DNA of 64,000 bases, taken from the NCBI RefSeq assembly GCF_001677475.2, contig NZ_CP015229.1, one strand, 5' to 3'. Below are positions 59,731-64,000 of this stretch, piece by piece. Made by a program: the position numbers and the translations under genes. Below the pieces are notes generated by a model. That model saw only the letters and a list, made by a program, of their open reading frames with translations, made no database searches and was not told where the DNA came from. Within the stretch, counting starts at the first letter, position 1; the number at the start of each line of letters is the position of its first letter. This DNA is from Escherichia coli (lineage in GTDB: Bacteria; Pseudomonadota; Gammaproteobacteria; Enterobacterales; Enterobacteriaceae).

Positions 59731-60651
59731 TTACTCGCCCTTTTTCGCCGCCTGAATATACAGCATCTCCAGCGCCAGCGTTGCCGCTGCCAGAGCAGTG
59801 ATTTCCGACTGATCGTATGCCGGAGCCACTTCCACTACGTCCATCCCAACGATGTTGAGATCTTTCAGGCCGCGTACCAGTTTAATGGCGCGATCGGAGG
59901 TCAGGCCGCCAATTACCGGCGTACCGGTGCCTGGTGCAAAAGCAGGATCCAGGCAGTCGATATCAAAGGTCAGGTAAACCGGCATATCACCCACAATCTG
60001 TTTCACCTGGGCGATAACATCATCCACGCTGCGATCGTTCACCTGGCAGGCGTCCAGCACGGTAAAGCCGTTGTCTTTATCAAACTCGGTACGAATACCA
60101 ATCTGCACGGAATGATTCGGGTCAATCAGACCTTCTTTTGGCGCGGTATAGAACATCGTGCCGTGGTCAAATTCACAACCGTTCGCATAGGTATCGGTGT
60201 GAGCGTCAAAGTGTACCAGCGCCATTTTGCCGAAATGTTTTGCATGGGCGCGCAGCAGCGGCAGCGTAACAAAGTGGTCACCACCGAAGGAGAGCATACG
60301 CTTACCGGCAGCCAGCAGTTTCTCTGCGTGCGCCTGCAATTTCTCGCTCATCTCACGGGCATCGCCGAAGGCATATACCAGATCGCCGCAGTCCACGACG
60401 TTCAGGCGCTCGCGCATGTCGAAATTCCACGGGAAACGGTTGTGTTCCCAGGCCAGGTTAGTTGATACCTGACGGATAGCCGCCGGACCGTGACGACCAC
60501 CCGCACGACCAGAAGTGGCCATATCGAACGGTACGCCGGTAATCACCCAGTCAGCATCGCTGTCATACGGCTGGAAGTTCATCGGCAGGCGTAAAAAACC
60601 AAAGGCGTTGGAAACCAGTGAGTTATCGTATTGATGCCCTAAGGTGCTCAT
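59731..60651 (-). CDS. speB: agmatinase (agmatine ureohydrolase), 306 aa
   Basis: ORF 59731..60651; arginase-fold metal-binding motifs ([14 protein letters not shown]). Confidence 0.95.
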
Positions 60652-60786: not shown

Positions 60787-61518
60787 CTATTTCCGACACG
60801 GTGGCGGCGCATAGCCATTGTTATCTGCTGGAAAAGCTTGTCCAGAGCACGGTGGCAGCGCGTTTTGCGCCGGGCCTTGTAATTCAAAGGCGGCAAAGCC
60901 GATTACCCCGGTATTACGCACATCGCCTTGCGCCGAATTGGCGGCGTAGGAATCAGCAACGTTGGCGAACTGAAAAGCCGCTTCGGTATGTTTATCTTTG
61001 CGGAATCCTTTAATCGCTAACGAATCTCCGGCATTCACAATATAACCGTTGTTATTCAGCGAACCTTGCTTGCCGTTCAGCACATCCAGGCCATCAACCG
61101 TAGCAACGATCTCGTAATTGGTGTTCCGGCTGTAGTTACGGACATATAATTGATAATTCATCCCCACTCTGGCATGAACAATATATCGCGGTTCATTATT
61201 TGATGAATCATAAACTCGCGTAATAGGTAGAGAATTAAAATTCGCATCACGAATAGCATATTCCAGTTCGTTAATACGAATGCTATAAACACGGTCGTAG
61301 CCGGAAGGAATATTTGTCGAATAATTAATAACGATCATCTCTGCCGGATCGCGCCAGGCGCGTTCAGCAGATACGCCCTGAACCGTTGAGTGCACATCTC
61401 CACCCCAGGCAGTGCCGACATTGCCCGATGCACTGCTATTATACTGCGCATTACTTGAGCAACCAGCCAACAACACGACTAATGCCACCAACGCGCTACG
61501 TACTTTCCATTTTTTCAT
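60787..61518 (-). CDS. hypothetical lipoprotein, 243 aa
   Basis: ORF 60787..61518; signal peptide with classic lipobox (VVLLAG-C, Cys20); N/S/Y-rich mature part; no domain recognised. Confidence 0.7.
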   Translation of the reverse strand: MKKWKVRSALVALVVLLAGCSSNAQYNSSASGNVGTAWGGDVHSTVQGVSAERAWRDPAEMIVINYSTNIPSGYDRVYSIRINELEYAIRDANFNSLPITRVYDSSNNEPRYIVHARVGMNYQLYVRNYSRNTNYEIVATVDGLDVLNGKQGSLNNNGYIVNAGDSLAIKGFRKDKHTEAAFQFANVADSYAANSAQGDVRNTGVIGFAAFELQGPAQNALPPCSGQAFPADNNGYAPPPCRK

Positions 61519-61661: not shown

Positions 61662-63638
61662 TTATTCATCTTCAAGATAGGTATATCCGTACAACCCTGC
61701 CTCGAACTCTTCAAGGAACTGTTGTTGCAATTCAGCATCAAGATCGGTTTTCTTCACTTGATCACGGAACTGAGTTAACAGCGTTTTCGGATCGAGCTGT
61801 ACATATTGCAGCATGTCCGCCACGGTATCGCCTTCGTCAGACAGTTCTACTTCTACGCTACCGTCAGGGAAGACGAACACGTCAACCGCTTCGGTATCAC
61901 CGAACAGGTTGTGCATATTGCCGAGGATCTCCTGATATGCGCCGACCATAAAGAAACCGAGCATCGGCGGATTCTCCGGATCGTACTCCGGCATTGGCAT
62001 TGTCGTGGCAATACCGTCACCATCAATATAGTGGTCGATAGCACCGTCAGAGTCACAGGTAATATCCAGCAACACAGCGCGGCGTTCCGGCACTTGATCC
62101 AGCCCTTCCAGCGGCAGAACCGGGAACAACTGGTCGATCCCCCATGCGTCCGGCATCGACTGGAACAGCGAGAAGTTGACGTACATTTTGTCCGCCATAC
62201 GTTCCTGCAGCTCGTCGATAATCGGGCGATGCGCACGGTTTTGCGGATCCAGTTGCTTCTGCACTTCATGGCACATGCTCAGATAGAGTTGTTCTGCCCA
62301 TGCACGTTCTTGCAGATTGTAAGTGCCCGAAGAGTATCCGATATGAATATCGTGCAGATCCATCTGGCTGTCATGCAGCCACTCACGCAGAGAACGGCGA
62401 GTCCCCGGTTCGTGCATTTCCTGCCAGGTTTCCCACATGCTTTGCAGGGCGCGCGGTGCGTCTTCTGCAGGTGCGGTCGGCACCGTGTATTCGTTACGTT
62501 CCACGCCGATGATATTTGACACCAGCACGGTGTGATGCGCAGTCACCGCACGACCCGACTCGGTGATTACCGTCGGATGCGGCAGACCATTTTCTTCACA
62601 CGCATCACCAATCGCCCAGATGATGTTGTTAGCGTATTCATTGAGGCCGTAGTTCACCGAACAGTCGGACTGCGAACGGGTGCCTTCATAATCCACGCCC
62701 AGGCCGCCGCCGACGTCGAAGCACTGAATATTGACGCCCAGCTTGTGCAGTTCCACATAGAAACGCGCGGATTCACGAACGCCTGTCGCGATATCGCGAA
62801 TATTCGCCATCTGCGAACCGAGGTGGAAGTGCAGCAGTTGCAGACTGTCGAGACGCCCGGCTTCACGCAGCGTTTCAACCAGTTGCAGTACCTGAGTCGC
62901 AGCCAGGCCGAACTTCGATTTTTCCCCGCCGGAGGACTGCCATTTACCGGAGCCCTGCGAAGCCAGACGTGCACGCACGCCCAGACGAGGAACGACATTC
63001 AGACGTTCTGCTTCATCCAGCACAATGGCAATTTCTGACATCTTCTCAATGACCAGATAGACCTTGTGGCCCATCTTCTCGCCAATTAATGCCAGGCGGA
63101 TATATTCGCGGTCCTTATAACCGTTGCAAACGATGACGCTACGGGTCATGCCAGCATGTGCCAGCACCGCCATCAACTCCGCTTTGGAACCGGCTTCCAG
63201 GCCCAGCGGTTCGCCCGAATGAATCAGGGACTCAATCACGCGGCGGTGCTGGTTAACTTTGATCGGATAAACGAGGAAGTAATCGCCGTTATAGCCGTAG
63301 GATTCCCGCGCACGTTTGAACGCGGCGTTAATAGAACGCAAACGGTGCTGCAGGATCTGTGGGAAACAGAACAGTGCAGGCAGACGCTGGCCCTGTGCTT
63401 CACGAGTTTTCACTAACTGCGCGAGATCGACGCGAGCTTCCGGGACGTCCGGGTCCGGGCACACGCTAATGTGGCCCAGCTCGTTAACGTCATAGTAGTT
63501 ATTGCCCCACCAGGCAATATTGTAAGTACGCAGCATCTTGCTGGCTTCCTGGGAGCTCATTGCAACCTCCTGCATGGAGCGTAGTACACCGTGTTCGCCC
63601 GCTGACGAAGGCAAACCCATAGACATGTCGTCAGACAT
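61662..63638 (-). CDS. speA: biosynthetic arginine decarboxylase, 658 aa
   Basis: ORF 61662..63650; start at [12 protein letters not shown] (ATG 63638..63636) gives the K-12 length. Confidence 0.95.
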
Positions 63639-63646
63639 AGCGAACC

Positions 63647-63778
63647 TCAAATTATTTTATTAAGTGTAAAACAGTTAACGACTATCGCAGCCTGGAACTG
63701 CGATAACAACCCATAAGCACATGGATTTTCCAGCAGTGAATGCTGACGCTCCAACTGCGCAACCGGTTTCTTTTTCAT
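63647..63778 (-). CDS. yqgB: small protein YqgB, 43 aa ([43 protein letters not shown])
   Basis: Minus-strand ATG 63778..63776 to TGA 63649..63647, ending 8 nt before the speA start; matches my recollection of K-12 YqgB; too short for the ORF track. Confidence 0.65.
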
Positions 63779-63913
63779 AACATTATTAAGCACATAACCG
63801 AACGTAAGTGTGACAGTTCGGCGAAACCACGAGAAAACTCTTGTTTTTACAAGAGCGCCCTTGTTCAGTCCTCAGTAACTGTAACCAGCTCTTGAATCCT
63901 GAGAAGCGCCGAG

Positions 63914-64000
63914 ATGGGTATAACATCGGCAGGTATGCAAAGCAGAGATGCAGAGTGCGGGGAACGAATCTTCACCAGAACGGTGAGACAGGTTAAGCAG
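63914..64000 (+). CDS. yqgC: possible 5' part of yqgC (runs off the right edge)
   Basis: ATG at 63914 opens a frame ([20 protein letters not shown]...) still open at the window end; position matches K-12 yqgC but the sequence was not verified. Confidence 0.25.

Follow-up and report, generated by a model that had tools for sequence, protein, structure and literature searches.

The small ORF yqgB, placed immediately upstream of speA, is rather likely to act in cis, as a translational-coupling upstream open reading frame (uORF) in a structured, Rho-terminated speA leader, and not by way of the peptide that it encodes. Features preserved in this ORF are its openness and the position of its end, and its conservation tracks nucleotides rather than codons. 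The arginine route to putrescine begins with speA, and a coupling uORF at this site would offer a concrete handle on speA regulation and on the ratio of the isoforms SpeA-74 and SpeA-70.

yqgB and its surroundings in the speA leader

In the window (the whole 64,000-nt stretch of Escherichia coli DNA that was analysed) the minus strand over the site reads ...ttATGaaaaagaaaccg...aataaaataattTGAggttcgctATGtctgacgac, with the yqgB ATG at 63778-63776 and the TGA stop at 63649-63647, encoding 43 amino acids. The gap between this stop and the speA ATG (63638-63636) is 8 nt, GGTTCGCT, at 63646-63639. The RefSeq spacing (yqgB end at 2854 and speA start at 2863 of locus L001) agrees, and so do these coordinates, with an earlier note on this DNA, which had described a 43-codon minus-strand ORF stopping 8 nt before speA. 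The note had named the ORF as YqgB and proposed alignment to the K-12 protein; this alignment with K-12 YqgB (b2939) gave 43/43 identity, and profile HMMs of NCBIfam NF033844 (90.1 bits, cut-off 35) and Pfam PF11036 (113.3 bits, cut-off 24) matched well above their cut-offs. The gene order yqgD-yqgG-yqgB-speA and the 8-nt gap are the same as in K-12 in RefSeq, and a single base sets the window apart from K-12 over the DNA of the leader and the adjoining part of speA. The 701 bases round the yqgB site were found in 5425 of 5426 complete E. coli genomes; among the matches listed for these 5425 genomes, 42/42 E. coli records annotate yqgB. The 43-aa query, used in both word-indexed and exhaustive protein searches, found no family beyond the small enterobacterial one, and matches to three long proteins (P0024, P0025, P0027) look like chance.

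yqgB is thus a gene already known and correctly re-found. The earlier note had called it missing from the ORF track, which is most likely due to the ORF-length cut-off: the default threshold of the ORF list is 60 aa, and yqgB falls below it. With a minimum of 20 aa, the same frame is listed as a 48-aa ORF when begun at the in-frame GTG at 63793. The novelty that the remark implied does not hold, the gene being annotated in RefSeq. The features of the region are collected in Table 1.

Table 1. Features of the yqgB-speA region, in window positions.
Feature	Position	Strand	Basis and remarks
yqgG, 3' part (annotated small ORF of the speA leader)	63872..64000	-	RefSeq; start 15 nt beyond the window end
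L-A leader hairpin with U-rich tail, terminator-like	63824..63856 (stem 63856-63837)	-	Consensus scan
L-B leader hairpin (GCCGAAC / GUUCGG)	63798..63822	-	Per-sequence folds
yqgB CDS	63647..63778	-	43 codons plus TGA; b2939 orthologue
H1 hairpin, predicted (AGCA/UGCU arms), yqgB codons 12-16	63732..63744	-	RNAalifold; weak support
H2 hairpin, predicted, yqgB codons 23-36	63673..63711	-	RNAalifold
H3 hairpin, predicted	63593..63645	-	RNAalifold; 8-nt spacer, speA AUG and codons 2-3 pair with speA codons 11-16
speA Shine-Dalgarno (SD) GAGG	63645..63648	-	Overlaps the yqgB stop (TGAGG), 6 nt before the speA ATG
speA annotated start M1, long isoform SpeA-74	63636..63638	-	Sequence, RefSeq; Ribo-RET peak (Meydan et al.)
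Rho-dependent RNA 3' end	63581 (K-12 3085854)	-	Adams et al. 2021 supplement, placed by sequence identity
speA internal start Met27, short isoform SpeA-70	63558..63571	-	AGGAGG 63571-63566, ATG 63560-63558; published iTIS
speA (biosynthetic arginine decarboxylase) CDS	61662..63638	-	ORF list, RefSeq

The ~500-nt leader of the speA-speB mRNA contains several small ORFs, and yqgB is the last. In Adams et al. (2021), the cloned speA 5' UTR runs from position 2365 of L001 to the base before the speA ATG, ~500 nt with yqgB inside; its start falls 136 nt beyond the window end. The ORF preceding yqgB, yqgG, encodes 47 aa and matches PF23505 with 129.9 bits. Between the two, and on the same transcript as yqgB, lies the hairpin L-A, GCUCUUG-loop-CAAGAGU followed by UUUUCUCGUGGUUU, 16 nt past the yqgG stop and ~60 nt before yqgB. 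Two-sided compensatory changes were found at 10 of its 13 pairs in 61 sequences. L-A may be an attenuator; the available part of the Adams et al. supplement lists no Term-seq 3' end at its position. The second leader hairpin, L-B, has compensatory variants in other genera (e.g., CUGAAC/GUUCAG).

No canonical SD sequence precedes the yqgB ATG in the window. An in-frame GTG 15 nt upstream of this ATG (an ATG in two species) is widely conserved, and an out-of-frame ATG 5 nt before it opens a two-codon mini-ORF overlapping the yqgB start (63776-63784, minus strand), which reads ATGTTATGA in E. coli and ATGATATGA in most genera. At the other end of the gene, a sigma-70-like candidate for a speA-proximal promoter (TTAACT-16-AATAAT) in the 3' end of yqgB was rejected, as it scores 9/12 and the tail that holds its -10 element is poorly conserved. 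Nothing was found in support of a polyamine-stimulated frameshift at AUU-UGA, which was considered as well.

Two starts have been reported for speA. Ribo-RET, which uses retapamulin, gave peaks at the annotated start and at the internal Met-26/27, and the two starts account for the 74- and 70-kDa isoforms (Meydan et al. 2019); on account of the published peak, M1 is taken here as a real start. The sequence CAGGAGGT at the Met27 start is invariant in 53 sequences, its AGGAGG even at synonymous sites. Downstream of speA and before the likely speB (59731-60651) there is an ORF of 243 aa at 60787-61518 (minus strand), whose N-terminus is lipoprotein-like (MKKWKVRSALVALVVLLAGCSS...). The ORF gave no Pfam match and was found in 3556 of the 5426 complete E. 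coli genomes with a best identity of just 95.6%, the yqgB-speA 5' region being 100% identical in many; it is a variable accessory gene within the speA-speB pair.

Open frame and codon selection across genera

Eighty loci round the speA N-terminus were fetched, one genome per species, and 79 of them had upstream sequence. They belong to the Enterobacteriaceae and Erwiniaceae and include Escherichia, Salmonella, Citrobacter, Klebsiella, Raoultella, Enterobacter, Kosakonia, Kluyvera, Cedecea, Buttiauxella, Erwinia, Pantoea and others. A YqgB-like ORF (M-K/N-K-K-P-V-A-Q ... G-L-L-S ... A-I-V-V-N-C-F-T-L) was present in 68 of the 79 loci, and exactly one long open frame (39-183 codons), ending at either of two TGAs, in 78; the remaining frames are open for ~1-20 codons only. 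One TGA is located at -11..-9 relative to the speA ATG, inside the speA SD (TGAGG), and leaves an 8-nt gap; the other is located at +5..+7, is formed by speA codons 2-3 (ATGTCTGA), and gives an 8-nt overlap. The stretch TGAGGTTCGC is nearly invariant over the 79 loci. In Erwinia, Pantoea and Mixta the arrangement is kept with largely unrelated peptides, and two genomes of Citrobacter youngae differ by a 1-nt deletion that switches the uORF from one TGA stop to the other. Conservation of the SD and of speA codons 2-3 brings two of the three frames to a stop near the speA start in any case, which weakens the argument from an anchored stop when it is taken alone. The earlier note had seen yqgB as positioned like a uORF of speA; the end of the ORF is indeed tied to the speA start across genera, and Adams et al. 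(2021) have yqgB within the speA 5' UTR and yqgB-speA as a candidate uORF.

The openness of the frame was assessed against column-shuffled alignments. Stops in the yqgB frame were found in 0/53 sequences against a mean of 8.6 expected, with a shuffle that ignores kinship; in 2000 shuffles there were never fewer than two sequences with a stop, so that 0/2000 reached the observed zero. Stop counts in the other two frames were at expectation in the same test. Judged from these alignments, the yqgB frame is open beyond chance. Where insertions of 20, 51 or ~125 nt separate H2 from the speA SD, the uORF stays open and the other frames gain stops. Compensated double frameshifts, or a 6-residue in-frame deletion, were found in three E. 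coli / Shigella flexneri sequences (P0005, P0007, P0008). In the double-frameshift variants, GLLSQFQ is changed to GSVIAVP in one and an 11-residue stretch to RQQHTAGKSMC in the other, the frame being restored and the peptide not; 7-12 residues are scrambled, with one sequence per variant, so that sequencing error is possible.

The insertions are palindromic (TATACCC...GGGTATA ends), are predicted to form stable hairpins, and have CAACTGTTTTA on one side and TACACTT on the other, ~40-170 nt upstream of the speA ATG (locus position 2001). They occur in L010, L019, L027, L047, L029, L048 and L042, the carriers including L042, Kosakonia and two Enterobacter species, and may be small mobile or REP-like elements. 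A 227-aa 'arginine decarboxylase' of Klebsiella pneumoniae IS43 (P0089) with both PF11036 and PF02784 amounts to an in-frame YqgB-SpeA fusion call; it uses the one frame absent from all 79 loci, and is probably a frameshift or annotation artefact. Five extra loci outside the Enterobacteriaceae and Erwiniaceae were discarded, three enterobacterial ones (including Dickeya) with a split speA and two with unrelated gene contexts. The homologous uORF stops early in two of the three split-speA loci; ORF integrity is unreliable in Dickeya and the two other enterobacterial loci because speA is split in those records.

Codon selection was measured on yqgB codons 1-36 over 63 loci, with speA codons 27-226 from the same genomes as control. 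For yqgB, pS was 0.256, pN 0.246 and pN/pS 0.96 (kinship ignored), and pairs of sequences differed on average by 0.239, 0.273 and 0.235 at the first, second and third codon position, i.e., no third-position periodicity was seen over the 63 loci. The corresponding values for speA were a pN/pS of 0.08 and 0.06, 0.035 and 0.389 at the three positions. The codon-level purifying selection expected of a small protein acting in trans was thus not found in yqgB, either in pN/pS or in periodicity. Synonymous divergence is halved in yqgB (0.256 vs. 0.542 in speA).

Within the ORF, pN/pS was 1.11 in the variable middle, 1.58 in the H2 inner stem, 0.54 in the N-terminus (KKPVAQ block) and 0.37 in the conserved blocks including AIVVNC, where pS was merely 0.098; half of the codons have a pN/pS of 1.1 or more. 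Where the ratio is below 1 (0.37-0.54), the block is at the same time part of an RNA helix arm or of the initiation region. Leu24 is TTG and Leu25 is TTA in 58/58 distinct sequences, and Ser26 is replaced by Leu through the pair-preserving change TCG to TTG in 12 of the 58. The KKPVAQ and AIVVNC blocks may be under peptide-level constraint to some degree. The first part of the speA reading frame is similar, codons 1-26 having a pN/pS of 0.54 and halved synonymous divergence; by these figures they would behave rather as leader RNA than as protein-coding sequence.

Predicted structure, Rho and proposed translational coupling

Helices H1-H3 were predicted with RNAalifold on 53 sequences. The arms of H2, GGUUGUUAUCGC and GCGAUAG...CAACU, are the codons for G-L-L-S and A-I-V-V-N and thus encode the signature motifs GLLS and AIVVNC of the YqgB family. 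The E. coli H2 has a predicted energy of -14.4 kcal/mol (z -2.9), and its architecture recurs in the predicted folds of 35 distinct variants with different inner stems (CAG/CUG, CAAC/GUUG, CAGG/CCUG, GGUG/CACU). A native-versus-chimera energy test applied to this variable inner stem gave -11.0 kcal/mol for native halves and -9.9 kcal/mol for chimeras (0/5000 permutations). H3 (-21.2 kcal/mol, z -2.4) appears in the predicted folds of nearly all loci, with energies of -16 to -24 kcal/mol, 98.7% of cells paired and changes to wobble pairs only; third-position entropy is 0.32 in its stem vs. 0.68 outside. For H1, 94% of cells are paired in the 53 sequences. In the fixed columns of H1-H3 taken together, 96% of cells are paired vs. 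30-57% with slid partners, with changes almost only to wobble. Pair counting in the 53 sequences found essentially no two-sided compensatory changes in H1, H3 and the outer part of H2, and a column-shuffle control for H1-H3 was uninformative, the columns being almost invariant. A search of the speA leader with Rfam 15 gave two chance-level snoRNA matches (E 1.8 and 7.7), far under the gathering scores.

H3, whose 3' arm sits within the speA coding sequence, is predicted to occlude the speA start codon. The 3' arm (63593-63612, minus strand) can also fold on itself, as UUCGUC-AGCG-GGCGAA in E. coli and GUUCGUC-AGCn-GGCGAAC in other genera, and some Erwiniaceae prefer this fold; such an alternative conformation may serve to hold the speA start open after H3 has melted.

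Termination by Rho in this region is documented. Adams et al. (2021) place an RNA 3' end that depends on Rho at 57 nt within speA, flagged 'uORF'; it falls ~12 nt downstream of H3. The same study found Rho-dependent read-through of speA, with the dependence persisting in a fusion that contains the speA 5' UTR only, and names yqgB-speA as a candidate for regulation by a uORF, in a list of validated small ORFs that have a 3' end after them. The role of yqgB as a speA uORF is thus already in print as a suggestion. Initiation at the yqgB start codon was detected in vitro by INRI-seq; Ribo-RET in vivo had not detected it. Translation of yqgB is supported by the in vitro start and the listing as validated, and indirectly, as far as the alignments go, by stop avoidance. 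Since Ribo-RET missed its start, yqgB is possibly poorly translated in rich medium; since Ribo-RET, which blocks initiating ribosomes, still shows the M1 peak, M1 would be reachable to some degree without ongoing yqgB translation.

The coupling reading can be formulated as follows. Ribosomes would initiate at the yqgB AUG, which lies in an A/U-rich region with no predicted pairing, pass through H2 and terminate on the UGA that overlaps the speA SD (UGAGG), at the 5' foot of H3. Left undisturbed, H3 (about -21 kcal/mol) would bury the M1 start codon; the terminating ribosome would melt its 5' arm, and the same ribosome or a fresh 30S subunit could then start at M1, 8 nt downstream, giving the long SpeA-74. 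The Met27 start, with its own strong and invariant SD, would be independent of this coupling, which would therefore mainly affect one isoform and Rho polarity. Ribosomes in the leader would in addition protect it from Rho, whose termination takes place in the leader and early in speA. With coupling and Rho shielding together, less speA-speB mRNA, less arginine decarboxylase and lower polyamine levels are expected when yqgB is deleted or interrupted. The steps by which H3 limits initiation at M1 and yqgB translation opens H3, the peptide being dispensable, are inferred, and the coupling step would follow from geometry and predicted structure. Counting against coupling, H3 and the outer part of H2 are predicted helices for which the comparative evidence consists of near-invariance and wobble-preserving changes, and Ribo-RET in vivo sees M1 but not the yqgB start.

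In Salmonella, a 2026 paper reported that deletion of yqgB leads to less speA/speB mRNA, arginine decarboxylase and spermidine, with a phenotype reversed by added polyamines. That paper treats YqgB as a protein target, and the word 'complement' is absent from its text. The existing yqgB data come from a whole-gene deletion and a transposon, with speA/speB expression down and cis and trans effects unseparated; under the coupling model the deletion phenotype would be explained as a cis effect.

A small protein acting in trans on membranes or the polyamine pathway, with its position before speA being ordinary operon organisation, would account for the database names ('acid stress response protein', 'virulence promoting factor') and curated families, for the counting of yqgB as an experimentally validated small ORF, and for the conserved blocks with pN/pS below 1. 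We consider it unlikely. The overall pN/pS of 0.96, the missing codon periodicity and the half of the codons at 1.1 or more argue against it, and its conserved 'motifs' are the H2 arms, in which synonymous variation is lacking. Moreover, the C-terminus shifts in frame and length among close relatives, 7-48 extra residues being tolerated, and the double-frameshift variants scramble internal residues. As expected of a cis effect, deletion strains have less mRNA of the gene directly downstream, and no trans complementation is reported. In a proteomic screen for arrest peptides, overexpressed YqgB induced aggregation-type heat-shock proteins and not the arrest-like cold-shock response; this, too, speaks against a functional protein. 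The same screen, in which no ligand was used, bears on a ribosome arrest peptide of the SpeFL, MdtU or TnaC type, with stalling by polyamine, arginine or agmatine tuning Rho loading and speA transcription. Putrescine and spermidine reportedly repress speA (older work of Moore and Boyle), which would suit such a sensor. In the same pathway speFL-speF and mdtU-mdtJI, both of which involve Rho, are precedents, and the Rho-dependent 3' end lies just past yqgB, where according to Adams et al. (2021) such ends suggest regulatory uORFs. However, arrest peptides are conserved in amino acids and yqgB is conserved by nucleotide instead; the residues nearest its stop vary in sequence, frame and length, and purifying selection on amino acids near an arrest site was not found (pN/pS 0.96, variable C-terminal tail). 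Together with the grouping of YqgB among the heat-shock inducers, this makes an arrest peptide improbable in our judgement.

There is little probability, as we see it, that the ORF is incidental and that the conserved element is the RNA leader (H1, H2, H3, L-A, L-B), acting through structure, a binding protein, an sRNA or Rho alone, with yqgB translation being irrelevant. The nucleotide-level conservation, the clear covariation of L-A, the failure of Ribo-RET to detect the yqgB start in vivo and the ATG without a canonical SD would all agree with it. Against it stand the avoidance of stops in the yqgB frame (0 vs. 8.6 expected, 0/2000 shuffles), the indels and insertions that always keep the frame open to the speA start, and the initiation at the yqgB ATG seen in vitro in an ORF listed as experimentally validated.

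The coupling reading may be carried further, tentatively and as something close to an even call: yqgB would be no functional protein gene at all, the PF11036/NF033844 signature being hairpin arms and the frame being kept open only for ribosomes that unfold H3, thereby gating SpeA-74 and countering Rho. If so, the acid-stress, virulence and colistin-sensitisation phenotypes assigned to YqgB would be cis effects on speA-speB, and YqgB would be no meaningful drug target. Already as a coupling uORF, yqgB would call for caution with the database names of YqgB and for re-examination of the studies that treat it as a stress protein or drug target.

Comparison with known systems

The gene described here and the YqgB of the databases (b2939; NF033844, PF11036) are the same gene, with an identical peptide, yqgG upstream and speA 8 nt downstream; only the functional label is questioned by the selection analysis.

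Close or overlapping stop-start pairs are found in bacterial operons, e.g., trpB-trpA, as is the uORF-dependent opening of a structured ribosome-binding site. The stop near or overlapping the downstream start that a coupled uORF should have was found here as the 8-nt gap in the window and as -8 or +8 in 78/79 loci. As in translational coupling by termination-reinitiation, the yqgB stop lies within 8 nt of the speA start or overlaps it, and the speA start is in a predicted stable hairpin that begins right after the yqgB stop. The difference is that speA has a second in-frame start, Met27, with a strong SD.

MdtU-mdtJI (Adams et al. 2021) and SpeFL-speF, the latter reportedly treated as a leader ORF of a polyamine gene by Herrero del Valle et al. 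in 2020, resemble yqgB in being short uORFs in the leaders of polyamine genes with Rho-dependent premature termination nearby. In contrast to yqgB, the MdtU and SpeFL peptides are sequence-specific sensors, whereas YqgB is without amino-acid selection, has a variable C-terminus and was not arrest-like in the proteomic screen.
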